Assembly: GCA_964398365.1 (NCBI GenBank)
Contig: CAYNMC010000038.1
Coordinates: 25,727-89,726 of the forward strand
Length of the DNA: 64,000 nucleotides
Source: an uncultured Pseudomonadales bacterium
GTDB lineage: Bacteria > Patescibacteriota > Microgenomatia > UBA1400 > CAYNMC01
Direction of reading: 5' to 3'
The position numbers and the translations under genes were made by a program. The notes under the pieces were generated by a model. The model searched no databases. It had not been told where the DNA came from and was given only the letters and a program-made list of their open reading frames with translations. Positions 24,948 through 60,060 of this stretch are shown here, in pieces. Positions within the stretch are counted from its first letter, which is position 1. Each line of letters begins with the position of its first letter.

Positions 24948-25808
24948 TTATAAGGCTGGTGATGGCGTCGCACTGAACGTGGAAATTGGCGAAGGTGAAA
25001 AATTGGCGGGCAAAGAAGGTGAAGCTTTAGGTGAAGCTTGAAGTCTTAAATCCCTTAACTCTTGAATTATCCTTTTTAATTCCTGCCGTAAAGCTTGAAT
25101 TTCTTTATGAATCGTTTGTAGAGTGGCTCGGGCATTTTGTAGAGTGGTTTTATTATCAGGATAACCCTCTGGCGTGAGGGCCATTAAACTTGCCTGAAGG
25201 CTTTGAATTTGGGACTTAAGATTAGCAATTTTATTTTGAATAGTTAAAAGAGCGTCCTCCAAAGATTTTACATCTTTACCTGCAGTCTTGGCTTCCTCAA
25301 GCTTACTTTGTAATTTAGCGATCGTGTCTTTAATTTTTGTTTCTAGAAGATCCAAGGCGGTGTCGCTAGCGGCTAAAAGATGAATTTTAGGTATAAACAA
25401 AGCATAAATACGATAAGCCTTAATGATTGATTGACTGTCGGTTTTAAGCGTCGCTAAATCTGTATCCGCGTTAATTTTATTTTTTAAGTCTTGAAGTTTT
25501 TCAATCTCTGCTTCTACCTGATTAATTAAACTGGTTTTCTGTGTCTCGCTTAATTTTTTAAAAGTCTGAAGGCGTTCACGCAACTTATTTAAAGATTGAA
25601 TTCTGCGTTCAATTTCTTGAAGAGCTCGTTGCCGAAGACGATTCATTATCTGTTCCTGATTTTGAGTTCTCATTAATTCTCTTTCTGGACGTCTTTCTGC
25701 TCCTGACGTTGCCCCAAAAAAATTAACTTCTTGTGCCCACGCTTTTAAAGGGGCCAAAAAAAGCAAAATCAACCAACTCAAAAAAAATAATTTTAAAAAT
25801 TTTTTCAT
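24948..25808 (-). CDS. secreted coiled-coil protein (hypothetical)
   Basis: Signal peptide MKKFLKLFFLSWLILLFLAPLKAWA, then heptad-like Q/E/K/L-rich sequence and a Ser/Pro tail. Confidence 0.65.
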   Translation of the reverse strand: MKKFLKLFFLSWLILLFLAPLKAWAQEVNFFGATSGAERRPERELMRTQNQEQIMNRLRQRALQEIERRIQSLNKLRERLQTFKKLSETQKTSLINQVEAEIEKLQDLKNKINADTDLATLKTDSQSIIKAYRIYALFIPKIHLLAASDTALDLLETKIKDTIAKLQSKLEEAKTAGKDVKSLEDALLTIQNKIANLKSQIQSLQASLMALTPEGYPDNKTTLQNARATLQTIHKEIQALRQELKRIIQELRDLRLQASPKASPSLPANFSPSPISTFSATPSPAL

Positions 25809-27295: not shown

Positions 27296-28282
27296 ATGAA
27301 CAGTCTAAAAGCGACGCGCGCTGGCTTTGGTGAAGCCCTAAACAAATTAGGGGAAATCAACCCTAATGTTGTTGTGGTTTCTGCTGACTTAGCCAGTAGT
27401 TTAAAACTCAGTAATTTCGCTAAAAACTACCCCGAACGCTTCTTTGAGTGTGGTGTGGCAGAAAATAATATGTTAGGGGTGGCTGCGGGCTTAGCTCTTG
27501 CTGGTAAAATTCCTTTTGCCTGTTCTTTTGCCGCTTTTTCTCCGGCTATCAATTGGGCGGTAATTCGTCAAAGCGTTTGTCTTAATCAAGCCAACGTCAA
27601 AATTGTTTCTTCACATGCCGGTTTACTTACCGGCGCGGATGGTGCCAGCCATCAAGCCCTGGAAGACCTGGCGCTCATGCAAGTATTACCTAAAATGACC
27701 GTGGTGGTTCCCGCAGATTTCAATCAAGCTTATACCGCTACCTTAGCCGCTGCCAAAATTAATGGACCTTTATATTTAAGATTAACGCGGCCGGATACAG
27801 AACAGTTAATTGATTTTTCTTTTAAAAAAACTAATCTTTCTCTCAAACCTCACAAATTTCAAATCGGTAAGTGCCAAATCCTTAAAGAAGGTAAAGATTT
27901 AACGATCATTAGCTGCGGGCCGATAATCTTTGAAGCCATTAAAGCAATCAAGCAGTTATCTAATCTAGACATTGAATTAATTAATTGTCATACCTTAAAA
28001 CCTTTGGATAAAAAAACCATCCTAAATTCTGTAAAAAAAACAAGAGCTTGTCTAACCCTTGAAGATCATCAAGTCTTTGGAGGTTTAGGCGCTAGTATTG
28101 CCATGTTCTTAGCGCAAAATTACCCCATACCTTTAAAAATTTTGGCTGTTGAGGACCGCTTTGGCGAGTCAGCAAGGAAAGAAACCGAACTCATCAAAAA
28201 ATTTAATTTAGATAACCAAGCAATTATTAGAGAAATTAAAAAATTCCTCCGCCTCTTTAAATCTAATGATTCGAATCATTAG
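27296..28282 (+). CDS. transketolase, C-terminal (pyrimidine-binding) subunit
   Basis: ERFFECGVAENNMLGVAAGLA and GASHQALEDLALM. Two-nt gap after the N-terminal subunit. Confidence 0.9.
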   Translation: MNSLKATRAGFGEALNKLGEINPNVVVVSADLASSLKLSNFAKNYPERFFECGVAENNMLGVAAGLALAGKIPFACSFAAFSPAINWAVIRQSVCLNQANVKIVSSHAGLLTGADGASHQALEDLALMQVLPKMTVVVPADFNQAYTATLAAAKINGPLYLRLTRPDTEQLIDFSFKKTNLSLKPHKFQIGKCQILKEGKDLTIISCGPIIFEAIKAIKQLSNLDIELINCHTLKPLDKKTILNSVKKTRACLTLEDHQVFGGLGASIAMFLAQNYPIPLKILAVEDRFGESARKETELIKKFNLDNQAIIREIKKFLRLFKSNDSNH

Positions 28283-28286
28283 ATTT
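28259..28286. terminator. 28-bp perfect palindrome shared by the convergent transketolase and ligase 3' ends (possible bidirectional terminator)
   Basis: AAATCTAATGATTCGAATCATTAGATTT is its own reverse complement. It contains both TAG stop codons and encodes KSNDSNH* on both strands. Confidence 0.5.
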
Positions 28287-30050
28287 TAAACTTTGGAGTT
28301 CTTTTAGAGAAGTAGCTTCATAAGGCTTCTTGTCATCCCGAAAGCGCTTCAAACGTGGGAAGCGCAAAGCCAAACCAGCAGTATGAATGGGTGAATAAGT
28401 AATATTGTCGGCTTCAATTTCAACTACTAAGCTGGAACGACACCAAACATCAGGAAAGAGATTTTTATGAACAAAATATTCTTTTGGTTTTTGGTTTATT
28501 TTGAGTTTTTCACAACGTTGATACATCTCTTGCCATTGTTTATCTGTCAAACCTGTACCGATTTTGGAAACAGTTAAAATTTTATTTTTATCAGGAATTC
28601 CTACCAAAAAAGCACCAATACCAAAACTCGCTCTTTTTCCCCGACCTTTATAATAACCCATCACCACACAATCAATCGTGTCCGCCAATTCTGATTTCAT
28701 ACCGGCTTTGTACTTCACCCAATTATAATTTCTCGCTCCTGCCTGATATCCCGCCTCGAGTTTTTTTGCCATCAAACCCTCCAAGCCTTCACTAACGACT
28801 TCCTGAAAAAATTTTTCAAAATCTTCAGCCTTGTCTACGATTTTCTGTTCGGTTAAAACAATATTTTTCGTTTGACTTTTTTGAAAGATCTCGGTCAGAA
28901 TTTTTCGGCGTTCCTGAAAAGGCAAATTTAACAAAGATCGATTTTGATAGTTCAAAATGTCAAAACAAAAAACTTTCAGGGGCAGGGCTGCTGCCTTCGC
29001 TCGAACGCCATGTTTACGCTTCCGTTGAATGGTCTCCTGAAAAGGGAGAAACTGACCGGTTTTGGGATGATAAGCAATCGCCTCTCCGTCTAAAATTACT
29101 GACTCTACGGGTAATTTCTGGGCTTCTTTAACGATATCGGGAAACATTGAGGTTAAATTATCCAAATTTCTGGAAAAAATTCTCACAAAGTACTGTTTTT
29201 GACTATCGAATAAATTTAAACTTGTCTCCTCTTGTGGACTAAATTTTCTTTTTTTATCAAGATGTACCTCGCAACGCAAACCATCATATTTGGGTTCAAG
29301 AGCGCAACGCCCCCCCATTTTTTCTAAAATTTCCTCTGGGTTTTTTAATCTTTCTGCCTTAGCCGGCAAAATAGGAATTCCCACTTCGCTTTTAATTTTC
29401 CTAATTCCCTTAAGGCCCTCTTTTTTAAAAATGCTGGCAATTTTACCAATATCTGCCAAAACATTAAAAGCTGCTTCTAAAGGCTGCCGAAGACTCTTAT
29501 TACCAGTCTGACTCCAAGAAAGTGCATCCAAAACTGTCATATCGGAAAAACCAAGACGTAATTTCTGCAACGAAATCCGTACCAAGTATTTTGCCGATAA
29601 AGGATCAATATTCCTCAAAAGTTCTGCCATTTTATTAATTTTTCTTTCTTGTGAACCTTCACCTGATTCCTGAGCAATTTCCACTAATTTTTGATAAACT
29701 TCCTTGACGTTAATTTGCAAATTTTGATGAGCATTTTTAATTTTTAATTTTTGTTTTTTTATCTTAAAAGCGACCTCACCAAGATCGCCCATTTCTTTGT
29801 AAGTCTTTGCAATAATTGTTGGTGTCACTTGAAGAGCAGTAGCCAGAACACGAATCATCATCTTCTCTGCCAACATCAGCTCAATACCAAGATATTTGGG
29901 AGCCAAACGACCTAAAACCAAGTAACAAATTTTATCAATCTCAGCCACCGTTGATTTTTTAAAAACCTCAGCTAATATCCGGGTCATCTCTAAGCGTGAA
30001 GCGGTCTTTTCTAAAAGATTTAAAAATTGAGAAAGTTCTCTAAAATCCAT
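28263..30050 (-). CDS. ATP-dependent DNA ligase, archaeal/eukaryal Lig1-type (DBD + adenylation + OB), copy 1
   Basis: 595 aa. EPKYDGLRCEVH (KxDG adenylation lysine), LDGEAIAY, EGLMAK, and WVKYK / LRFPRLKRFRDDK at the C-terminus. Paralogue of 53631..55349. Confidence 0.9.
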   Translation of the reverse strand: MDFRELSQFLNLLEKTASRLEMTRILAEVFKKSTVAEIDKICYLVLGRLAPKYLGIELMLAEKMMIRVLATALQVTPTIIAKTYKEMGDLGEVAFKIKKQKLKIKNAHQNLQINVKEVYQKLVEIAQESGEGSQERKINKMAELLRNIDPLSAKYLVRISLQKLRLGFSDMTVLDALSWSQTGNKSLRQPLEAAFNVLADIGKIASIFKKEGLKGIRKIKSEVGIPILPAKAERLKNPEEILEKMGGRCALEPKYDGLRCEVHLDKKRKFSPQEETSLNLFDSQKQYFVRIFSRNLDNLTSMFPDIVKEAQKLPVESVILDGEAIAYHPKTGQFLPFQETIQRKRKHGVRAKAAALPLKVFCFDILNYQNRSLLNLPFQERRKILTEIFQKSQTKNIVLTEQKIVDKAEDFEKFFQEVVSEGLEGLMAKKLEAGYQAGARNYNWVKYKAGMKSELADTIDCVVMGYYKGRGKRASFGIGAFLVGIPDKNKILTVSKIGTGLTDKQWQEMYQRCEKLKINQKPKEYFVHKNLFPDVWCRSSLVVEIEADNITYSPIHTAGLALRFPRLKRFRDDKKPYEATSLKELQSLKSNDSNH

Positions 30051-30059
30051 GGGTAGTTA

Positions 30060-31115
30060 TTATTGAACTAAACGGTATTTGACGCCTTTAGTCTTACCCT
30101 CCCTAACAATTAAGCCTTTTTTCAATAAATCTCTTAAATCTCTTAAAATTGTGTCTTCGGAAACCATTTTTAAAATTTGTTTGGCTTGAGCCATTTCTAA
30201 GGACTTATGTTCTTTTAGAAACTTTACTAACTTTATTTGTCTTGAAGAAAGAATTATCTGTTTACCCAAACGATCCTTTAAACTACTATCCAAAGATAAA
30301 CTCTCAACTTTTTCTTTGACTTTTTGCAATTCTACAGCCAAGCCATAAGTAAAATATTCTAACCAATTTGTAAGATCATTATTAAGGCTAACGCTTTGAA
30401 GATGCTGATAATAAGCGGCGGCATCTTGATCATAATATTCTTCTAAAGAAAAGAAGCGTTTAATGTCATAACCTTCACGGAAAAGAATCAAAGTTGCAAA
30501 AGCACGAGCTACGCGACCATTACCATCAATAAAGGGATGAATCCTCACAATTTCATAATGAGCAATTCCTGCTCGCAAAACTGGGTGAATATTCTTTGAT
30601 CGTGGTTCATGAGATAACCAAGCAAAGAATTCTTTAATTTGATAGGGAACCTCAATTGGTGGTGGCGGAATGAATTTTACCTCTTGAGTCTCACTATCTT
30701 TAACAACAACTTTAAGCTTCCGATAATGACCACATTCTTCAGGAGACAAAATTTTTTCTACGGTAAGACTGTGAATTTTTTTTAAATGTTCTTCCTTATA
30801 AACAAAATCTTTGTTTTCGCTACTTGAGAGCTTATCTAGGTAATCCAAAACCTTGCGGTAATTGAGCACTTCTTGAATATCACGGGGACGGCCAACTACT
30901 TTTTCTCCCTCAATTACCTTTTTGGCCTGATTGAAACTTAAATCATTTCCTTCAAGATGAGTGCCATGATGAACGGTTCTGGCGGTCGCTTCTTCCCGAA
31001 ATTGATTCTCCCAAGCTGGTAAAAGCGGCGCGTTATCGATTAAAGCTTTAGCGGCTTCGATCTGGGCAATATTTCTTAAGATTTCCTCACTTATCGTAAA
31101 CTTTGGCCAGTACAT
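30060..31115 (-). CDS. Fic-family protein (Fic_N + Fic + C-terminal winged-helix), copy 1
   Basis: HPFIDGNGRVARA matches the catalytic HxFx(D/E)GNGRxxR motif. C-terminal ...ILRDLRDLLKKGLIVREGKTKGVKYRL is wHTH-like. Nine-nt gap to the ligase. Confidence 0.88.
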   Translation of the reverse strand: MYWPKFTISEEILRNIAQIEAAKALIDNAPLLPAWENQFREEATARTVHHGTHLEGNDLSFNQAKKVIEGEKVVGRPRDIQEVLNYRKVLDYLDKLSSSENKDFVYKEEHLKKIHSLTVEKILSPEECGHYRKLKVVVKDSETQEVKFIPPPPIEVPYQIKEFFAWLSHEPRSKNIHPVLRAGIAHYEIVRIHPFIDGNGRVARAFATLILFREGYDIKRFFSLEEYYDQDAAAYYQHLQSVSLNNDLTNWLEYFTYGLAVELQKVKEKVESLSLDSSLKDRLGKQIILSSRQIKLVKFLKEHKSLEMAQAKQILKMVSEDTILRDLRDLLKKGLIVREGKTKGVKYRLVQ

Positions 31116-31295
31116 AACAATCTTATTTTAACGATTTGAGAAATTTTTTAAAGAGGGTCTTACCGCTGATTTTTTTCTCGTGACGGCGATTTTTGAAAAA
31201 CGCTTTTACAACCCAGTTTAAAGTTGGGTAGGAATAAAGGAAATATATTTATTTCTTCAAAGGAACTTTTAGGCTCAGCAGTCGGTCCATTTCTG

Positions 31296-31367
31296 TGGGC
31301 GAGGATGGGATCGAACCATCGACCTTCGTCTTATCAGGACGACGCTCTACCACTGAGCCACTCGCCC
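31296..31367 (-). tRNA. tRNA-Ile(GAU)
   Basis: Minus strand: GGGCGAG TG GCTC AGTGGTA GAGC G TCGTC CTGATAA GACGA AGGTC GATGG TTCGATC CCATC CTCGCCC A. About 200 nt downstream of the 16S 3' end. No encoded CCA. Confidence 0.9.
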
Positions 31368-32011
31368 CTTCCCTGTTAGTTTTCCTTGCCTAAAAATTAC
31401 CCTCTATTGGTAGGGGCTAAAGGATGATATCAATCTGAATAAGTGATAGGAATCCCCGATTTTCTAAGGTGTCGGCGGCACACCCGACTGTGACGATTTA
31501 CAGTCATGTTTTTCCTTTGACTTGCGCCAAAGAGGTAAAAACCCTGTGAGTGGGTAAACCTTTTATCCTTAAGAAAGGAGGTGATCCATCCGCTCCTTCC
31601 AGAACGGATACCTTGTTACGACTTACCGCTGATTACCGAGCTTGCCTTCACCCCGCCTAAAGGGCGGGGCTTCGGGCACTCCCGACTTTCCTCAGTTGAC
31701 GGGCAGTGTGTACAAGGAGCGAGAACGTATTCACCGCGGTCTGCTGACCCGCGATTACTACCAATTCCGCGTTCATGAGGGCGAGTTGCAGCCCTCAATC
31801 CCAACTGAGGGAAGGTTTGATGGGATTAGCTCCGCCTTACGGCTTGGCAACCCATTGTCCTTCCCATTGTAGGATGTGTGTGGCCCTGGGCATAAGCGCC
31901 GTGCTGACTTGACGTCATCCTCTCCTTCCTCCCCGCCAGTTGGCGGAGCAGTTCCCTAAGAACTTCTAACTTAGGGTAAGGGTTGCGCTCGTTACCGCAC
32001 TTAAGCGTACG

Positions 32012-32045
<34 letters not shown>

Positions 32046-32965
32046 GCTGTCCTAGTGTCCTTGCGGAAGCCTCGGTTTCCCGAAGATGTCACTAGGATGT
32101 CAAACCCAGGTAAGGTTCATCGCTTCGTATCGAATTGAACCACATGCTCCACTGGTTGTGCGCTCCCCCGTCAATTCTTTTGAGTTTTAGCCTTGCGGCC
32201 GTAGTTCCCAGGCGGCCTACTTAACGCGTTAGCTTACGTCACCCCCGCGAAAAACGGAGACAACTAGTAGGCATCGTTTACGGCTAAGACTACAGGGGTC
32301 TCTAATCCCTTTTGCTCCCTTAGCTTTCGTTCATCAGCGTCTGAAGGACCTAGGTGCCTGCCTTCGCTCTCGGTGTTCTTCCCAATCTCAACGGATTTCA
32401 CTCCTCCACTGGGAATTCCAGCACCTCCGATCCAACACAAGTTTTTCAGTATCAATCGCCTTTCTCCGATGAAGTCGGAGGCTTTAACGACTGACTTGAA
32501 AAACCGCCTACGAGACTCTTTACGCCCAGTAAATCCGGATAACGCTTGCACCCTACGTCTTACCGCAGCTGCTGGCACGTAGTTAGCGGGTGCTTATTCC
32601 CCCGATGGTCTCCCATCGGGGAAAAGTGGTTTACAACCCGAAGGCCTTCATCCCACACGCGGCGTCGCGGCGTCAGAGTTGCCTCCATTGCGCACGATTC
32701 CCGGTTGCTGCCACCCGTAGGTGTATGGGCCGTGTCTCAGTCCCATTCTGCCCGTATCCCCTCTCAGGGCGGGTACCCGTCGTAGCCTTGGTAGGCCATT
32801 ACCCTACCAACAAGCTGATGGGCCGCAGGCTCATCCCTCGGCGGACAGTTACGTCCTTTTCCCGATTAAATCGGGATTATGCGGTATTACCCCGCCTTTC
32901 GGCGAGCTATTCCCCACCAAGGGGTAGATTCCTACGTGTTACTCAGCCGTTCGCGGCTAGCGCAA

Positions 32966-33389
32966 CTCACAACACTCAACTACCAACTTTCAACTTTTTA
33001 GAAAAACCGCCAAGTTGATTTACAACGCTTTCACAAAGTTCAATTGACTCGTCAAATTCTTTAGAGTTAATCAGCTTTTCACTAAAAGCAACATCTAACG
33101 CGGATGCTGTTTCATTTGCTGAACCCATCGAATTTTCGAGATATCTGTTGAAATCTTTGTCTGAAGTTTTTGCTGAACCTTCTGCTATATTTAAGACTAT
33201 CGATAAAGAACTTCTTCTTATCTGATCTTTTAGATAATAGAAGTCTTTTGGAAATTTGGCAGACAATCTTACTATTTTTCGATGTAGATTCTTTGAGTCC
33301 TTATATACCTTAAAGTTCAAAAAACGGAAACTTATAATCTAATCATAGCAGAAAGTTGTGTGTTGTTTGTTGGAGGCTGAATGTTGTGA
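32966..33389 (-). other. intervening sequence (IVS) inside 16S rRNA helix 6 / V1, with basal stem
   Basis: After GCATGCAAGTGGAGCGAGCGTAGC the rRNA leaves the conserved core. CTCACAACA (33389..33381) pairs with TGTTGTGAG (32974..32966), after which the core resumes GCGAACGGCTGAGTAACACG. A second pairing, CAACTTTC / GAAAGTTG, lies inside. Confidence 0.8.
32976..33320 (-). CDS. four-helix-bundle protein (23S rRNA IVS protein / S23p / Avd-like family) encoded within the 16S IVS
   Basis: 114 aa. KFPKDFYYLKDQIRRSSLSIVLNIAEGSAKTSDKDFNRYLENSMGSANE matches the family core (QlrRAa.Si..NIAEG...s.kef..fl..A.GS..E). Same strand as the rRNA. Confidence 0.8.
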   Translation of the reverse strand: MNFKVYKDSKNLHRKIVRLSAKFPKDFYYLKDQIRRSSLSIVLNIAEGSAKTSDKDFNRYLENSMGSANETASALDVAFSEKLINSKEFDESIELCESVVNQLGGFSKKLKVGS

Positions 33390-50227: not shown

Positions 50228-50845
50228 TCATGAAACAAACGGGACGAAGTTGAAGATGCCGTGCTCAGACTTTCTTATGCCTTTTTTTGTCTTTTTATAT
50301 TTTGTCATTGTCTTGTCATAACCTTCCCCTACCGGCGCAACCAAAACTCCTCCCATTTTAAGTTGCTCAAACAAACTCGCTGGAACTTTTTTGGAAACTC
50401 CGGCTGTAATCAAAATTGCATCAAAAGGTGCCTTGCTTTTCCAGCCCAGCTCTCCTCTTCCCCACTTAACTTTTACATTTTTGTAACCCAGTTTCTTTAA
50501 TTTTTCTCTAGCTTGTTTGGCAAGCTGACTAATTATCTCTATCGTAAAAACTCTCTTTGCCAAAATAGATAAGATAGCAGCCTGATAGCCCGACCCCGTT
50601 CCAATTTCCAAAACCTTCTCCCCCCCTTTAAGACCCAGAAGGTGTGTCATAATGGCAACTGTATAAGGCTGAGACATTGTCTGGCCAAAACCAATTGGCA
50701 CCGGCCGGTCATCATAAGAAAGATGACGAAATTTAGAAGGGGCAAATTTATCTCGCGGAACCAAAAGCATTGCTGAGAGGACTTTGGGAGAATTTAAAGC
50801 ATACTTTGTTTTAATCTCCCAAACCATCCTCTCTGCGTCTGTCAT
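50228..50845 (-). CDS. pcm: protein-L-isoaspartate O-methyltransferase
   Basis: GFGQTMSQPYTVAIM and VLEIGTGSGYQAAILS. Confidence 0.9.
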   Translation of the reverse strand: MTDAERMVWEIKTKYALNSPKVLSAMLLVPRDKFAPSKFRHLSYDDRPVPIGFGQTMSQPYTVAIMTHLLGLKGGEKVLEIGTGSGYQAAILSILAKRVFTIEIISQLAKQAREKLKKLGYKNVKVKWGRGELGWKSKAPFDAILITAGVSKKVPASLFEQLKMGGVLVAPVGEGYDKTMTKYKKTKKGIRKSEHGIFNFVPFVS

Positions 50846-50853
50846 GGTTGAAC

Positions 50854-51183
50854 CTATAACTTTCCCAATAATTGCCTTACAAACTTACCAACAATAGGAA
50901 CCTCCCACTCTTCACCCTGCCAGGCTTTGTAAATAAGAAAAAGCCAAAGAATAAAACCTACAATCCCTACCAAAGGCACCAGAGCAACAAGAATTATTGT
51001 AAAGCCCATAATCATCTGTAAAACAAACAAACCCAAAAATACCACTATTGACTGCATTGCATGGAAACGCACATAGGAATCTTTTTCCAAAATTAGAAAA
51101 ATCACTCCTGTGATAGGACCCAAAACATAAGATAGTGCTGCCGCCGTGTTTTTACTAAGTCCAGTTCCAGAACTAACTGGCAT
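50854..51183 (-). CDS. small multi-TM membrane protein, DUF4870/Tic20-like, copy 2
   Basis: AAALSYVLGPITGVIFLILEKDSYVRFHAMQS ... KAWQGEEWEVPIVGKF. Paralogue of 12543..12869. Confidence 0.7.
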   Translation of the reverse strand: MPVSSGTGLSKNTAAALSYVLGPITGVIFLILEKDSYVRFHAMQSIVVFLGLFVLQMIMGFTIILVALVPLVGIVGFILWLFLIYKAWQGEEWEVPIVGKFVRQLLGKL

Positions 51184-51264: not shown

Positions 51265-52563
51265 CTAATCAAAAAGGTGTCCTTGGTCGAAAGGTACGGA
51301 CACATGTTCTTCCTCGCGCCAAATCTTGACAACTCCATAAACTCCATCATATCCCGGTAAAATTTGAATATCTCCCAAGCGAACTTTTTTGATTCCCTCA
51401 ACCACTTTTGGATAAGTAGCCTTTTCCAATTCAGACAAGGCAGTTTCAAGTAAGACCTTATATTCGCTCCCAAAATTATTAACAAGTTGGTCATAAATTT
51501 GCAGAACTTTTTGACTTGTTTCACCACTGGCTAAAGACTCGGAAATAATCTCCAAAAGAGGAACCATCATTACATATGGCGCACGATTTTGGTCTTTTGA
51601 TTTTATCCAACGAACCCCAAACTCATCAATAAAACTTTCTGTCTCAATTTCTTTTTTGGCAAGATGCTCCACCCTGCTCATAACACCCACTGTCAAGGGT
51701 TTCCCACAAACCGGGCAGGTGATTCCTCTCTTGCGCGTATCGTTTGGGGAATAAACTATTTTGCAATTTCTATGACCAGTGTAGTGGTATTTCCCTTCCT
51801 CAGGATAAAACTCTATGGTATGAGAAATACCTTGAGGATTCATAAGAGAGTTCCTTAAGTTTTCAAAACTTAAGCTTTCTAGATTAAAAATGGTCATCTC
51901 GCGCCCCAGTTTTGCGGGTGAGTGCGCATCAGAGAAAGAAACGATATTCTTACTATTAAGCTCTCCAATTCTCCAATTCATAGCCGGATCACTTGAAAGG
52001 CCAGTTTCTATTGCAAAAATATTTTCGGCAAACTCACCAAAACACTCCCTGATACTCTCAAAACCAGAAATACTGCCATATAAAGAAAACCATGGAGTCC
52101 AAGCATGGGCCGGGATAATAATTATTCTTTTGTCAATATTCCAAAGGACTTCTGCTACCACTTTTACTGACATACCCAGAATCGGTCTTCCGTCACTTAG
52201 TAAATTAACTCCCTTTTTTGTTAATTCTTTATTTACCTTTTCGATAACTTCAAAATTGGGGGCAAAGACAAGATAGTGTATTCTGTGGCTTTTACCTGAT
52301 TGTAAATAGACAGAACTAATCTCAGTTGAAAGAATAAATCCCGGCGAATTTTTATCCGAACCTTTCAGCCTGTAGATTCCCTCCTCATTCTCTTTGAGAT
52401 TTGCTTCAAGCTCGCGAAGCCATAAAGGATGCGTCCAATCTCCTGTTGCCACAAGGTCAATACCCTTCTTTACCGCCCAGTTGGCGATAGTCGAAACATT
52501 CATCTGCGAAGAAACAGCTCTGGAAAAGCGCGAATGCAAATGAAGATCAGCAGTAACCTTCAT
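51265..52563 (-). CDS. PHP-domain endonuclease Q-like protein, copy 2
   Basis: ADLHLHSRFSRA, ATGDWTHPLW and ITCPVCGKPLTVGVMSRVEHL. 38/60 identical to copy 1 over the first 60 residues (manual count). Confidence 0.7.
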   Translation of the reverse strand: MKVTADLHLHSRFSRAVSSQMNVSTIANWAVKKGIDLVATGDWTHPLWLRELEANLKENEEGIYRLKGSDKNSPGFILSTEISSVYLQSGKSHRIHYLVFAPNFEVIEKVNKELTKKGVNLLSDGRPILGMSVKVVAEVLWNIDKRIIIIPAHAWTPWFSLYGSISGFESIRECFGEFAENIFAIETGLSSDPAMNWRIGELNSKNIVSFSDAHSPAKLGREMTIFNLESLSFENLRNSLMNPQGISHTIEFYPEEGKYHYTGHRNCKIVYSPNDTRKRGITCPVCGKPLTVGVMSRVEHLAKKEIETESFIDEFGVRWIKSKDQNRAPYVMMVPLLEIISESLASGETSQKVLQIYDQLVNNFGSEYKVLLETALSELEKATYPKVVEGIKKVRLGDIQILPGYDGVYGVVKIWREEEHVSVPFDQGHLFD

Positions 52564-52584: not shown

Positions 52585-53559
52585 CTAGCTAAACTCGGCA
52601 ACCAGAAAGAGAAGATACATCACAAGAAGTACTCCCGCCTCCCACCTATCAAGCCGGTGTTTGCTTCTTATAAAAAACCAAAAAGTGATAAAAATGATGA
52701 TAAACGCGACTGCCGCCAACGAATATTTCTCAACTGTCATCAAGCTAACCGGGGATATGACGGAAACTGTCCCCAGAATAAGAGTAGAGTTGGCAATTAT
52801 TGATCCAAAAAGATTGCCCAAAAACATACTGGGTTCTTTATTCCCAAGTGATTTGAATGAGAAAGCAAGTTCAGGAAGAGTCGTGCCCATCGACAAAATA
52901 ACAAGACCCACAATAAAAACTGGTACACCGGCCAGAGAAGCCAAAAAGGTACCCACTCGCACAATTACATCGGCTGAAAAAAGCAAAAGAGCAATACCGA
53001 TAAAAAGACTGCCCAAATCCTTTGATAAGACTGTTTCAGTATGAACGAACTCCCGCAAAAAACGATGCACAAATTTCTGATCCAGATTTTCCTGAGCGAT
53101 TTGCACAAACCGGTTTTTAAAAAAGCTTGACGCATAGCCAGCATAGACAGCCAAAAGGATAAGGCCATCAACTCTTGAAAGTTCTCTGTCTATTATTAGA
53201 AGAAGAGGTAAAAGTCCTGCCAAAAAGGCAAAAAAAAGATCTTTCTTGATTGCCTCGCCTTTTATATTTACCTTACCGAGAATAAAGGCACTTAGCCCTG
53301 CCACAAGTGAAATATTGGCAATATTAGCTCCCAAAACATTACCCAAGCTTAAGTTCGGACTACCCTCTAGAGCCGAGGTAATTCCTACAAAAAATTCCGG
53401 AAGCGAAGTTCCAACCGCCAAAATTATTGCAGACAAAACAAAAACCTTAGCTCCAACTTTTTTACTTATCCTTCTTATGGCAAGAATTACAAGGTCTGAA
53501 GATTTAATCAGAAAAAAGGAAAAAATAAAAAGTGATAAAAAAAGGGTAATGATTATCAT
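52585..53559 (-). CDS. Ca2+/cation antiporter (CaCA family, YrbG-like)
   Basis: Two alpha-repeats, AVGTSLPEFFVGITSA and SMGTTLPELAFSF. About 10 TM segments. Confidence 0.85.
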   Translation of the reverse strand: MIIITLFLSLFIFSFFLIKSSDLVILAIRRISKKVGAKVFVLSAIILAVGTSLPEFFVGITSALEGSPNLSLGNVLGANIANISLVAGLSAFILGKVNIKGEAIKKDLFFAFLAGLLPLLLIIDRELSRVDGLILLAVYAGYASSFFKNRFVQIAQENLDQKFVHRFLREFVHTETVLSKDLGSLFIGIALLLFSADVIVRVGTFLASLAGVPVFIVGLVILSMGTTLPELAFSFKSLGNKEPSMFLGNLFGSIIANSTLILGTVSVISPVSLMTVEKYSLAAVAFIIIFITFWFFIRSKHRLDRWEAGVLLVMYLLFLVAEFS

Positions 53560-55356: not shown

Positions 55357-55560
55357 TTATACTCTTTGGGTGGCTAAGTAAGAAGAAAAGAAAAGATAGG
55401 CAAAAACAACCACTCCAATAAAAGCCAGTCCAAAAGCAATATTTATTAGACCATTCCATTCTTGGTGGAAAATCTTATTAAGCCCCTCTCCAACTAAAGT
55501 CAAGCCAAAAAGGGCTGGCAAAACCAATATCATATACAAAAATTGCGGGTCTTTTGCCAT
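55357..55560 (-). CDS. small two-TM membrane protein (hypothetical)
   Basis: 67 aa with two hydrophobic helices. Gaps of 4 nt and 7 nt to Fic and the ligase. Confidence 0.5.
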   Translation of the reverse strand: MAKDPQFLYMILVLPALFGLTLVGEGLNKIFHQEWNGLINIAFGLAFIGVVVFAYLFFSSYLATQRV

Positions 55561-56632: not shown

Positions 56633-56673
56633 ATTTTAAATATAACGCAATCTTTGCGGAAAAAACAAGACAG

Positions 56674-57516
56674 CTAACCCAGGCGTGCTAAGGTTTTTGG
56701 AACGTCATCTGCCAAGTCGTCTGCGTTAAAGTAAACTCCAACACTTTCTGCCAAATTTTCTGCTGTTTTTTTAATAATATAGGCTGCGGCTTGAGCTGCT
56801 AAAAAAGGCTCATTTTTGGCCAAAAGTGCAACAGTTAAGCCGGCATGAACGTCTCCTGTGCCGCCTTTGGTTAGTCCAGCGTTGCCACCGGAGATTTCAA
56901 CAACTTCCTGAGGTGAGGCGACTTTGGTTATTTCTCCCTTAAGGCAAATGATACAACTGTATTCTTTAGAAGCCTCGGCAATATCCATTTTGCCAAATAG
57001 CATAGAGTATTCTTTTTTGTTGGGTGTAAGAATTGAATTTTTTGGAATCCACTCGGGGTACATTGTTTGCAAACTTCCCGCATCAATCACCCACTTCTTA
57101 TAAGGATGTCTGAGAAGAAGTCTCTTGGTAATCAAGCGGGACATTCGACAGGCTTCGTCGCAGTAAGATAAATCACCACCTTTATGGCTTTCTTCAGTCT
57201 TGTAACGCATAAAGCCTGGGCCCAAAAGAGCCGCGTCGGATTTTTGAATATATTTATCAATCTCCTTCCAAGGAACCCAGATAAACGAGCCAAGTTTTGC
57301 CTTAATATAATTCGCAACTTTTCCAACTGATGGTTCGGGTGAAGAGAAAAAAACCATGTCCACAATTCTTGAGGCTACTTTTAATGATAAAAGTGGGGCG
57401 CCGTGGAAAAGCTTGGAGCCACCAATAATTGTCACTTGACCATTGTCTTCACCATCTGACGCAGGGGGTGGCTTGTATAAATCTTTGAGGATTTTGGGGT
57501 CGAATTTTGTGGTCAT
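56674..57516 (-). CDS. nnrD: ADP/ATP-dependent NAD(P)H-hydrate dehydratase (YjeF C-terminal type)
   Basis: GQVTIIGGSKLFHGAPLL and GNAGLTKGGTGDVHAGLTVALLA. Confidence 0.8.
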   Translation of the reverse strand: MTTKFDPKILKDLYKPPPASDGEDNGQVTIIGGSKLFHGAPLLSLKVASRIVDMVFFSSPEPSVGKVANYIKAKLGSFIWVPWKEIDKYIQKSDAALLGPGFMRYKTEESHKGGDLSYCDEACRMSRLITKRLLLRHPYKKWVIDAGSLQTMYPEWIPKNSILTPNKKEYSMLFGKMDIAEASKEYSCIICLKGEITKVASPQEVVEISGGNAGLTKGGTGDVHAGLTVALLAKNEPFLAAQAAAYIIKKTAENLAESVGVYFNADDLADDVPKTLARLG

Positions 57517-57810: not shown

Positions 57811-58878
57811 TTATAGAATAATTTTCCTAACCTCGGCAAATTTTTTGACATATTGTAACTCTGTGGTTGTAATTACTGTCTGGTGGTGTTTGATTACCTT
57901 CATAACCACCTCTCTGTGAGCTTTATCTAATTCTGAAAAAATATCATCTAAAAGAAGTGTGGGTTTGTAACCGGTCTGCCTTTCAATATATTCAAGCTCC
58001 CGCAGTTTGAGCCACAAAACTGCCATTCTCTGCTCGCCCCGGGAACCAAAACGAGAAAGGTCTCTCTCAATTTTGAATTTTGAATTTTGAATTTTGAACT
58101 GAATATCATCTCTGTGGGGACCAACTAGAGTGGTTGCTGCTGCAACCTCTTCTGCCGCGTATTGCTCAAGACGGGAATGCGAAATTGCAGATTTATCATA
58201 AACGAGTGTGAATCTACAATTGTCAAAATTTGGTTCTTGGTTTACAAAATTAATAAATTCTTCCCTTTTGCGACTTATAAAATCTCCATTTTTTATTAAG
58301 AGTTGGTCCCAGAAAATAAGCTGTGAGCGCGATAGACCCTCCTCGCGGATACGATAAAGAAGCCTGTTGCGCTGACGTAGACCTTTTTCGTAAGAAAGGT
58401 TGCTGCGGCGATATTCGCGATCACTTTGAGATAAAACAGCATCGAGAAAACTTCTTCTTAAACTTGGTGATTGGGTCACCAATCCCAAGTCCCATGGCCC
58501 GAAGATAACCGTCTTGAAGCGTCCAGCAAAATCTATAAGTCTTTTATTTACCCCGTTTACCAAAAGTTTTTTGCGAACAAGATGTTTTTTAGGGGAAAGA
58601 TGAGCTTCTCTACCTAAATTCATTTCACCTCTCGTCAATACTACCTCTAATATCTCCTCTGTTTTTGCTTTTACGCGGGCAATTTCAGCATTTTCACTAA
58701 TCATTTCCTCTTCAATCTTGGCTCTAAAACTTTTGCCGCTTGCAACTAAATTTATTGCCTCAAGAATGTTTGTTTTGCCGCTGGCGTTAGGGCCAATTAT
58801 CAAAGTTACTTTTGGTGAAAACTCAATTAGCTTTTCTTTGAAATTTCTAAAGTCTGTAAGTTTGATTTTTTGGATCAT
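57811..58878 (-). CDS. recF: DNA replication/repair protein RecF
   Basis: KLTDFRNF, Walker A GPNASGKTN, GPHRDD, SRGEQR signature and LLLDDIFSELD Walker B. Start set at ATG 58878 (MIQKIKL); the 30 upstream codons of the track ORF look like the tail of a decayed gene. Confidence 0.9.
   Translation of the reverse strand: MIQKIKLTDFRNFKEKLIEFSPKVTLIIGPNASGKTNILEAINLVASGKSFRAKIEEEMISENAEIARVKAKTEEILEVVLTRGEMNLGREAHLSPKKHLVRKKLLVNGVNKRLIDFAGRFKTVIFGPWDLGLVTQSPSLRRSFLDAVLSQSDREYRRSNLSYEKGLRQRNRLLYRIREEGLSRSQLIFWDQLLIKNGDFISRKREEFINFVNQEPNFDNCRFTLVYDKSAISHSRLEQYAAEEVAAATTLVGPHRDDIQFKIQNSKFKIERDLSRFGSRGEQRMAVLWLKLRELEYIERQTGYKPTLLLDDIFSELDKAHREVVMKVIKHHQTVITTTELQYVKKFAEVRKIIL
58069..58098. repeat. 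heptanucleotide tandem repeat (AATTTTG x4 plus 2 nt) inside recF
   Basis: Read directly from the sequence. It encodes FKIQNSKFKI between the GPHRDD and SRGEQR motifs. Confidence 0.9.
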
Positions 58879-59204
58879 AATCTTCCAGAGCACTTTTCCA
58901 TAATTTTCTCGAATATGGCTAACTCTTTGATATTCCTTATTGCTAAGGTAACCGTTTCTGCAAGTCAACCAAAGGCTATTTTCAAAAATCTTCTGAATTC
59001 ATTTTGATTATTTCTTGCATGACCTTTGACAATCTTAAGAGGCACAGACAAAACGGCATATCTTAATTGAGAAGTCAATCCAAAAAGCTCATCTAGGGGA
59101 AATTTATCGGAAAGTTTATAAACACTCCACGCCAGCTTGTCCGCTATTTCCCAAGCGATCAGTTTTTTATAACCTGTTTTGTACAGTATCTTGTCACCTG
59201 TCAC
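58879..59204 (-). pseudogene. decayed four-helix-bundle (23S rRNA IVS protein / Avd-like) gene between mutM and recF
   Basis: YKKLIAWEIADKLAWSVYKLSDKFPLDELFGLTSQLRYAVLSVPLKIVKGHARNNQNEFRRFLKIAFG stops prematurely at 58965. The expected C-terminal segment (GYLSNKEYQRVSHIRENYGKVLWKI) continues in the recF frame. Possible GTG start at 59204. Confidence 0.6.
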
Positions 59205-60060
59205 TTGTCTTTTGTCTCTGACAATTCGGGCAAAAGTAGGTGCCGCGGCCACCCAACATTATTTTTATAAACTTAGCTTTTTTACACCTAGAACAAAACT
59301 TGCCCTCCTTACCATAAGCTAAAAAATAATTTTGATAATTACCCTCACCTCCATCTGGGGTAACAAAAGCCAGCTCACTTGCCCCGCCTCTTTTGATACC
59401 TTCTTTTAAAACTCTAATAATTGAATTGTAAAGAAGTTTTACTTCAGATTCTTTTAGAGAGTTTGCAGGACGAGTGGGATTGATACTTGCAAGCCACAGC
59501 GCATCATTGGCATAGATATTACCCACCCCACCCATCTTGGACTGATCCATAATTACTATTTTTACAGCACTTTTACTTGATTTTAAGATTTTAGAAAAAA
59601 GCTCCAAGGTTAAGCCATTTAGGGGTTCTGGTCCAAGTTTTTTAATAAAATCAATGTCAGTGACACTCTCGGTTTCAACTATCTTAATCCAGCCAAAGCG
59701 GCGAACGTCGTTATAGAAAAGTTTGCCATCGCGATCAAGATGGAATATTAAATGAGTATGGCGGCCACCTAAGCCACCAATAACTTTTTTTGATAGGTCC
59801 GGAGGATCTTTTAAGTTTGGGCCACGATAGATAAACTGGCCGGTAAGTTTAATATGAGCAACAAACGAATAGCTATTATCAAGATCAACTGATAATACTT
59901 TGCCAAAACGGCGGACCTTTTTGACTTTACCTCCTACGAGTTTATTAACATCTCCTGAAACAATTTTTGGAGTGTGAACACTCACTTTCTGGATCTTATG
60001 ACCCCTTAAATATTTATCAAGTTGACCCCTGATTGACTCTACTTCGGGTAGTTCAGGCAT
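59194..60060 (-). CDS. mutM: formamidopyrimidine-DNA glycosylase (Fpg/MutM)
   Basis: MPELPEVE N-terminus (catalytic Pro2/Glu3), H2TH region and C-terminal zinc finger CSRC...CPNCQ. Confidence 0.92.
   Translation of the reverse strand: MPELPEVESIRGQLDKYLRGHKIQKVSVHTPKIVSGDVNKLVGGKVKKVRRFGKVLSVDLDNSYSFVAHIKLTGQFIYRGPNLKDPPDLSKKVIGGLGGRHTHLIFHLDRDGKLFYNDVRRFGWIKIVETESVTDIDFIKKLGPEPLNGLTLELFSKILKSSKSAVKIVIMDQSKMGGVGNIYANDALWLASINPTRPANSLKESEVKLLYNSIIRVLKEGIKRGGASELAFVTPDGGEGNYQNYFLAYGKEGKFCSRCKKAKFIKIMLGGRGTYFCPNCQRQKTSDR

Follow-up and report, generated by a model that had tools for sequence, protein, structure and literature searches.

This report concerns a 64,000-nucleotide (nt) stretch of DNA, referred to throughout as the window, which covers positions 25,727 to 89,726 of the forward strand of contig CAYNMC010000038.1 (GenBank assembly GCA_964398365.1; a metagenome contig of 164 kb), and more specifically two loci within it at which a fic gene is followed by lig, the gene of an ATP-dependent DNA ligase. 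Both Fic proteins carry a C-terminal winged helix-turn-helix (wHTH), and at both loci the genes run in the same direction on the minus strand. The features of the two loci are as follows.

30060..31115, minus strand: fic1, class II Fic with C-terminal DeoR-type winged helix, 351 amino acids (aa); identified by open reading frame (ORF), Pfam and AlphaFold model
30051..30059, minus strand: spacer from the fic1 stop codon to the lig1 start codon, 9 nt, TAA-taactaccc-ATG, without a Shine-Dalgarno-like sequence (sequence read)
28263..30050, minus strand: lig1, three-domain ATP-dependent DNA ligase (DNA-binding, adenylation and oligonucleotide/oligosaccharide-binding (OB) domains), 595 aa; Pfam and TIGR00574
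55565..56632, minus strand: fic2, paralogous class II Fic-wHTH enzyme, 355 aa; ORF and Pfam
55357..55560, minus strand: small two-helix membrane ORF between fic2 and lig2, 67 aa
53631..55349, minus strand: lig2, second three-domain ATP-dependent DNA ligase, 572 aa; ORF, Pfam and TIGR00574

At the second locus, 4 nt lie between fic2 and the 67-aa ORF and 7 nt between this ORF and lig2. An initial annotation, made from the sequence alone, had described a Fic-wHTH gene with a co-directional Lig1-type ligase twice in the window, separated by 9 nt at the first locus and by nothing other than a 67-aa membrane ORF at the second. Coordinates, strand, Pfam domains and motifs all agree with this description, the 9-nt gap is exact, and the ORF at 55357..55560, with its two hydrophobic helices, is the only separator. 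The same annotation estimated 55–60% identity over the first 60 residues, and counting from alignments gives 60% for Fic1 and Fic2 and 55% for Lig1 and Lig2; over full-length alignments the values are 54% and 46%, respectively. A recent tandem or segmental duplication of the two pairs is ruled out by these full-length values and by the closer relationship of each pair to pairs from other metagenomes. Each pair falls into a clade of its own, together with orthologous pairs from elsewhere, and the two are therefore old paralogous or transferred units.

The pairing extends well beyond this contig; a restriction to it would, according to the initial annotation, have refuted the functional link. 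A survey seeded with Fic was based on one genome per species. In each of the eight informative genome loci whose Fic shares at least 48% identity with Fic1, the ligase follows directly downstream on the same strand; a further, ninth locus was left out, as a contig end cuts it. Paralogs of only 33–40% identity, including one from Beckwithbacteria, are found at seven loci and none of these has a ligase. Contig look-ups with Fic homologs of 57–100% identity present the same order in seven cases out of seven, namely Fic, an optional 60–67-aa ORF and then the ligase. Seeding with the ligase instead recovers 80 metagenome loci with 45–68% identity to Lig1, of which 56 hold at least 1.4 kb of upstream sequence, and Fic lies directly upstream on the same strand in 51 of the 56 (91%). 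A partial or complete Fic is present inside a shorter upstream stretch in 13 further loci, while three shorter contigs of the set show no trace of Fic. Named relatives of Fic and ligase come from Gottesman-, Levy-, Curtiss-, Beckwith- and Shapirobacteria, all of the Microgenomates group (Patescibacteria, or Candidate Phyla Radiation (CPR)), and the pair is kept across at least five Microgenomates candidate phyla. Four assemblies with typical Microgenomates fic–lig loci (L002, L006, L007 and L012, 48–56% identity to Fic1) are labelled "uncultured Gammaproteobacteria" or "Pseudomonadales", and are probably mislabelled or contaminated bins.

Fic and ligase co-diversify. Their cluster memberships coincide and their distance matrices are correlated (Mantel r = 0.68, a value that 0 of 999 permutations reach), at a mean identity across the set of 55% for Fic and 52% for the ligase. 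Gaps between the two genes are often of -4 to 20 nt, with many 4-nt overlaps or spacings of 1–20 nt. Two loci carry an ORF inserted between fic and lig, one of 132 aa that is PIN/VapC-like by eye (L157) and the other acidic and of 150 aa (L015). Within its neighbourhood, the step from Fic to ligase is the most conserved immediate adjacency: NAD(P)HX dehydratase (CarbK) stands directly before Fic in 6 of 40 loci, RecF lies within 1.5 kb of Fic in 16 of 29, and any particular gene directly follows the ligase in at most 10%. Conservation across phyla, co-diversification, tight spacing and this leading adjacency together provide good support for a functional or regulatory link between the two genes, as the initial annotation had proposed, and fic and lig very probably form a selected, co-expressed unit.

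The Fic linked to the ligase belongs to class II, with a FICD-like core and a DeoR-type winged helix. Fic1 matches Pfam Fic (E = 9.5e-23) and HTH_DeoR (E = 4e-5), with Fic2 also above the cut-off for Pfam Fic and matching HTH_DeoR with E = 2.6e-3. The active-site motif HxFx(D/E)GNGRxxR, located at residues 193-205 of Fic1, is present as HPFIDGNGRVAR in Fic1 and HPFVEGNGRTAR in Fic2, the motif stretches being HPFIDGNGRVARA and HPFVEGNGRTARA, respectively. Across 63 sequences of the Fic family H193, F195, G198, N199, G200, R201 and R204 are invariant, as is the inhibitory glutamate, E55. The latter is part of the inhibitory-helix sequence G51-T52-H53-L54-E55-G56-N57, which aligns with TVAIEGN of FICD and in which E-G-N is invariant. 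The S/T position of the (S/T)xxxE(G/N) signature is occupied by Gly in the ligase-linked subfamily, with Thr one residue later, and Fic paralogs without a ligase link carry the canonical STAIEGN. The same glutamate blocks AMPylation and is needed for deAMPylation in FICD and CbFic2 (PMC10628234). The initial annotation called Fic catalytically competent, which holds for the invariant catalytic residues; E55 is invariant too, and the enzyme is therefore of class II, intact at its active site but probably autoinhibited or bifunctional. A class I toxin-antitoxin arrangement of the FicT/FicA (VbhT/VbhA) kind is rejected, as the helix with the inhibitory Glu is supplied in cis, and no (S/T)xxxE(G/N) stretch is visible in the listed copies of the small downstream ORF, a hydrophobic, two-helix membrane protein.

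A profile of the family searched against the PDB has human FICD as its best sequence match (E = 5e-30, with the inhibitory helix aligned), followed by CbFic2, 4RGL, a Bordetella Fic, CccR and SoFic. The AlphaFold model of Fic1, with a mean predicted local distance difference test score of 88, comprises an N-terminal helical part, the Fic core and the winged helix, the last being composed of three helices and a two-strand wing (residues 291-349). Foldseek assigns a probability of 1.00 to 4RGL, 8CIL, 7XUX, 3EQX and FICD, while the best full-length fold matches are 4RGL, CbFic2 (8CIL), CccR (7XUX), a M. marinum Fic and SoFic, and superposition on FICD results in a root-mean-square deviation of 2.3-2.9 Å over approximately 260 core residues. 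The winged helix is basic, with an isoelectric point of 9.5-10.3; the recognition helix within it has the sequence VS(E/D)DTILRDL, specific to the ligase-linked subfamily. Fic2 clusters with the Fic proteins of L115, L116, L119, L121, L122 and L129 at 65-69% identity.

By its three domains, its KxDG element and motifs III-VI, the ligase is of the Lig1 type, as found in archaea and eukaryotes. The Pfam domains DNA_ligase_A_N, _M and _C are all present in Lig1 and Lig2, which score 389.8 and 398.4 bits on TIGR00574 against a cut-off of 217.8, and the best solved relative is the Sulfolobus solfataricus ligase 2HIV (E = 1.4e-116). The catalytic lysine motif reads KYDG in Lig1 (residues 254-257) and KFDG in Lig2, and the residues invariant in the ligase alignment include K254, D256, G257, R259, E323, F363, K446, K448, R563, R566 and K574. 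Where the Fic proteins of a clade share 65-69% identity with Fic2, the ligases of that clade share only 48-51% with Lig2, compared to 76% for Fic and 69% for the ligase within the clade. Lig2 has therefore been the faster to diverge, and keeps every invariant column. A close ligase homolog of 937 aa (P0170) has LAGLIDADG_3 (PF14528) between its ligase domains, which suggests an inserted intein. Assignment to the LigD/Ku ligases of non-homologous end joining (NHEJ) is rejected, with scores of 153.4 and 169.1 bits on TIGR02779 against a cut-off of 227.75 and a TIGR02776 match below cut-off. Ku is absent from the neighbours covered by a Pfam scan or by a listing of Pfam families, and NAD-dependent LigA from the ten large window ORFs scanned, which include both ORFs of more than 600 aa and thus of LigA-like size.

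The 67-aa ORF encodes two hydrophobic helices (grand average of hydropathy (GRAVY) 0.99) and has GGAG 9 nt before its ATG. Intact homologous ORFs, for example those of L083, L087, L093, L112 and L115, are 60-67 aa long with a GRAVY of approximately 1.0-1.5, and share the well-conserved peptide pattern xDPQFLYMILVLPxLFGLTLVGEGLNK...FAYLFFS. Among 66 loci holding fic and lig in full, tblastn places a homolog between the two genes in 35 and detects none in the other 31, the fic1 locus included. The ORF has no match in Pfam, NCBIfam or PADLOC. It occupies the position of the AS1 antitoxin of EcSofic, with no other link between the two.

A shared promoter element precedes many of the fic genes. Alignment of the 200 nt upstream of fic from 61 loci yields a 31-nt consensus, cTTGttTTTTyCCGCAAAAAgTGCGATAATta, which consists of a -35-like TTG, a 17-nt spacer and an extended -10 (TGcGATAAT), with a CCGCA..TGCG box inside the spacer. 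This box is an inverted repeat in most loci, its left half being flipped to GCGG in some clades. With a match defined as at least 19 of the 31 consensus positions, the element occurs in 40/61 upstream regions compared to 0.7 in shuffles, and a stricter regular expression is matched in 39/61 compared to 1.7. Across all loci and the window (1.48 Mb), 28 of 35 matches to a regular expression for box and extended -10 lie 25-150 nt before fic on the same strand. That the element is simply the generic promoter of the lineage is rejected, since 732 kb of Microgenomates loci contain 271 extended -10-like sites and just 31 of these have the box. Within the 64-kb window the motif is matched exactly once, at 56641..56659, before fic2. 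The candidate promoters of the two window loci are given below.

56640..56668, minus strand: fic2 promoter with embedded box; -35 TTGTTT at 56668..56663, CGCAA-aga-TTGCG at 56658..56646, -10 TTATAT at 56645..56640
31125..31152, minus strand: weak sigma-70-like promoter candidate before fic1, TTTAAA-16-TAAAAT, without the CCGCA/TGCG box; such sites are no commoner than in shuffles

Where the promoter is present, the distance from the end of the -10 to the start codon is mostly 6-11 nt (7 nt for fic2), so the fic mRNA is probably leaderless or nearly so. Several fic orthologs would, if leaderless, start with GTG.

Taken together, these features lead to a tentative proposal with somewhat less than an even chance of being right, namely that fic-(tm)-lig, where tm denotes the small membrane ORF, may be a conserved operon with a dedicated promoter, in which Fic binds its own box and sets ligase expression, with its activity gated by DNA. 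The genes would be transcribed as one unit from a regulated promoter directly upstream of fic. In most lineages the -35 and the extended -10 of this promoter are separated by a stretch that holds the partly palindromic box, CGCA-N3-5-TGCG. Fic would bind DNA via its DeoR-type winged helix, most plausibly at the box of its own promoter as the analogy with CccR and CbFic2 suggests, and this binding would set the expression of both fic itself and the downstream ligase, giving Fic control over ligase output. CccR represses its own promoter via palindromes near the -35 and -10 (PMC9755527), and DNA binding mediated by the wHTH switches CbFic2 between AMPylation and deAMPylation (PMC10628234). As in CbFic2, DNA binding or dimerisation could gate the AMPylation or deAMPylation activity of Fic toward a DNA-associated target, and we infer that this target lies in DNA ligation or repair and is possibly the ligase itself. 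The initial annotation had also considered a wHTH-mediated transcriptional controller of the ligase gene, an idea which gains some support from the conserved, nearly fic-specific and partly palindromic box and from the CccR precedent.

Several observations weigh against this proposal. The box is missing or degenerate in about one third of loci, including that of fic1 and its closest relatives, and its presence does not covary with the recognition helix, which is equally conserved with or without it. The right half of the box overlaps the extended -10 (TGn), and an alternative reading of the fic2 box is a weak 5-bp hairpin immediately past the CarbK stop codon. The ligase has no strict need of a neighbouring fic, since one higher-GC clade (L110, L113, L125, L130 and L143) has RecF directly before the ligase and no adjacent Fic, and the ligase of L135 lies without Fic in an unrelated context. 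No fusion of Fic and ligase is found among the top 120 matches per protein or the top 150 representatives, the longest of which has 446 aa. Finally, the pair lies inside a wider conserved block of repair genes, and part of its persistence may therefore reflect inheritance within that block rather than selection.

This loosely conserved block comprises Fpg, RecF, in some loci NAD(P)HX dehydratase, Fic, optionally the small membrane ORF, the ligase, optionally a cation ATPase or Na-Ca exchanger, a PHP-like protein, DUF4870 and PCMT. The second window locus sits inside this Fpg–RecF–PCMT block, in an order shared with many related loci, and its members in the window are the following.

59194..60060, minus strand: Fpg/MutM, upstream of fic2 (Pfam)
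58965..59252, minus strand: 23S_rRNA_IVP-like ORF of 95 aa (Pfam E = 5e-18), squeezed in between RecF and Fpg and overlapping the 3' end of the Fpg ORF
57811..58968, minus strand: RecF, upstream of fic2 (Pfam)
56674..57516, minus strand: NAD(P)HX dehydratase, upstream of fic2 (Pfam)
52585..53559, minus strand: Na/Ca exchanger, downstream of lig2 (Pfam)
51265..52563, minus strand: PHP-like protein, downstream of lig2, 432 aa, starting MKVTADLHLHSRFS; homologs lie downstream of lig in many loci
50854..51183, minus strand: DUF4870 membrane protein, downstream of lig2 (Pfam)
50228..50845, minus strand: PCMT, downstream of lig2 (Pfam)

The window copy of the 432-aa PHP-like protein has no Pfam match, while its homolog in L088 carries MJ0043_C; the protein, which travels with Fpg, RecF and the ligase, might be a phosphoesterase that processes DNA ends.

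The first locus has a different setting, lying between the genes of 16S rRNA and tRNA-Ile on one side and a convergent transketolase gene on the other, and its closest relatives have Fic, ligase, ATPase and exchanger followed by transketolase or transaldolase. The tRNA-Ile(GAT) gene (31295..31367, minus strand) and the 16S rRNA gene (31574..33022, minus strand) are followed by fic1-lig1 in place of tRNA-Ala, 23S and 5S. Since the 64-kb window contains neither a 23S nor a 5S gene, the rRNA genes seem to be unlinked. An ORF of 114 aa with the 23S_rRNA_IVP four-helix bundle (32976..33320, minus strand) adjoins or overlaps the 16S match at the latter's 5' end. At the other end of the locus, the gene for the C-terminal part of transketolase (27296..28282, plus strand) overlaps lig1 by 20 nt, the peptide KSNDSNH ending both ORFs, and a palindrome spans the two convergent gene ends.

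28257..28292, both strands: TTTAAATCTAATGATTCGAATCATTAGATTTTAAA, a perfect palindrome (about 36 bp) where the 3' ends of lig1 and the transketolase C-terminal gene converge; folding energy of each strand about -17 kcal/mol

The palindrome probably serves both genes as a bidirectional terminator hairpin, with the two reading frames extending into it.

The wider block raises the question of inherited synteny, in which fic and lig would be independent genes kept together by slow rearrangement of a repair-gene block, with Fic acting on unrelated targets. The recurrence of the larger Fpg–RecF–PCMT block supports this, as do the ligase clade that lost Fic and kept RecF directly before the ligase and the finding that 34 of 39 loci have at least one member of the downstream block within 4 kb. 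However, the proteins average 52-55% identity, a divergence at which unselected gene order normally decays, and the step from Fic to ligase stays at 91% although the immediate neighbours vary on both sides. Furthermore, the two diverged pairs of the window occupy two contexts, 16S/tRNA-Ile–transketolase in one case and the repair block in the other, and both the single promoter before fic and the stop and start codons, which overlap or nearly abut, speak for selected co-expression. Inherited synteny is an unlikely explanation.

An improbable account, too, is that Fic and the small ORF represent a toxin or anti-phage module of the SoFic kind, with an AS1-like antitoxin, which became fixed beside the ligase and shares its transcript without any mechanistic tie. 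Defence genes are typically patchy in distribution and located in variable islands. The ligase-linked Fic, on the other hand, is a near-universal neighbour of a housekeeping-type ligase and co-diversifies with it vertically amid core genes (Fpg, RecF and PCMT) in several candidate phyla. PADLOC SoFic does match both proteins over their full length (E = 1e-50 for Fic1 and 2e-46 for Fic2), yet the score on the NCBIfam SoFic equivalog is 58.7 bits, far below the cut-off of 550. The toxicity of EcSofic is neutralised by a 47-aa protein whose gene lies directly downstream (PMC12249575), the position held here by the 60-67-aa ORF, and class II Fic-wHTH proteins can act as toxins, as CccR does on FtsZ (PMC9755527). 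Against this, the 31 pairs in which the small ORF is undetected, fic1 among them, still have an intact Fic motif, and the ORF is a two-helix membrane protein, as which AS1 is not described (PMC12249575). Catalogued phages and plasmids hold just distant Fic relatives, with at most 33% identity.

Direct enzymatic coupling, in which Fic (de)AMPylates the ligase as a switch or, in the manner of aprataxin, strips AMP from ligase-AMP or 5'-adenylylated DNA (5'-AppDNA), is quite unlikely: both enzymes form AMP adducts from ATP, the two genes are tightly linked and co-evolve, repair genes abound nearby (Fpg, RecF and the PHP-like protein) and the basic wHTH would place Fic on DNA, but no fusion of the two proteins is found among the top 150 representatives and some ligases of the family have no adjacent Fic. 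We also know of no Fic that acts on the phosphoramidate of lysyl-AMP or the pyrophosphate of AppDNA, and none turned up in the literature searched. Fic does retain the catalytic His motif together with the Glu on which deAMPylation by FICD, EfFic and CbFic2 depends (PMC10628234). In its most specific form, the ligase-linked Fic would be a DNA-bound AMP-transferase or deAMPylase with its substrate in ligation itself, serving as a ligase switch or clearing ligase-AMP or 5'-AppDNA in bacteria that lack a HIT-type aprataxin. This is very doubtful; if true, it would for the first time link a Fic protein and a DNA ligase through enzyme and substrate, and give a class II Fic-wHTH protein its first assigned housekeeping function.

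Returning to the operon proposal, in which Fic would act at its own promoter box, both component families are known and the architecture of the Fic is shared with CccR, CbFic2 and SoFic. The initial annotation knew of no Fic-ligase system, and the literature searched, which does not cover all journals, returned nothing relevant on Fic together with DNA ligase, Patescibacteria, Microgenomates or gene neighbourhood; neither the Fic-ligase operon nor its promoter element nor a housekeeping-like class II Fic-wHTH was found described there. To our knowledge, every Fic-wHTH protein characterised so far is a toxin, an effector or a defence protein. The present subfamily resembles a core gene, tied to an ATP-dependent ligase across an uncultivated group at the superphylum level, in a repair neighbourhood and with a promoter element of its own. 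The locus offers a candidate partner or target (the ligase or DNA ends) as well as a candidate operator, for the study of which recombinant proteins suffice and cultivation is unneeded. It is also relevant to the way in which CPR bacteria employ and regulate a ligase of archaeal type, of which this genome has two diverged copies.

Among known ligases, the closest comparison is with archaeal and eukaryotic Lig1-type enzymes such as that of S. solfataricus (2HIV), which have the same DNA-binding, adenylation and OB domains, KxDG and catalytic motifs; the ligase described here differs in being bacterial (CPR) and in having a fic gene in front. We know of no archaeal Fic partner of a Lig1-type ligase, and the sole archaeal Fic locus recovered (L076) has no ligase. 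The bacterial LigD-Ku operon of NHEJ is similar in that an ATP-dependent ligase is genetically coupled to a DNA-binding partner, whereas the fic-lig loci are without Ku, polymerase or phosphoesterase domains and score 153-169 bits on the NHEJ ligase models against 227.75. On the side of Fic, human FICD (HYPE) and Caenorhabditis elegans Fic-1 share the core, including the inhibitory helix and the glutamate of deAMPylation. Unlike the ligase-linked Fic, FICD has a transmembrane anchor and tetratricopeptide repeats, acts on BiP in the endoplasmic reticulum and lacks a wHTH.

The remaining relatives combine Fic and HTH. SoFic and EcSofic-AS1 have the same architecture, a PADLOC match (E = 1e-50) and a small ORF directly downstream (PMC12249575). 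They differ from the ligase-linked Fic in the equivalog score (58.7 versus 550 bits) and in the two-helix membrane ORF, often absent here, while the ligase-linked Fic lies outside defence islands and is itself conserved and inherited vertically beside a ligase. CbFic2 of Coxiella burnetii (8CIL) is a class II protein with an N-terminal inhibitory helix and a DeoR-type wHTH, is the second-best fold match, and matches the profile over both core and wHTH with E = 3e-26; it is a bifunctional AMPylase/deAMPylase regulated by DNA binding (PMC10628234). As an effector on host histone H3 with an N-terminal DUF4172 it is set apart from the present Fic, which has GTHLEGN where CbFic2 has TSAIEG and a core closer to FICD. 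CccR of Yersinia pseudotuberculosis (7XUX), at 17-19% identity, is a secreted toxin of the type VI secretion system that AMPylates FtsZ and has no ligase link, while no secretion context is seen at the fic-lig loci. It nevertheless shares with the ligase-linked Fic a class II Fic with a C-terminal HTH and a full-length fold match, and its autorepression via promoter palindromes (PMC9755527) parallels the box embedded in the fic promoter.

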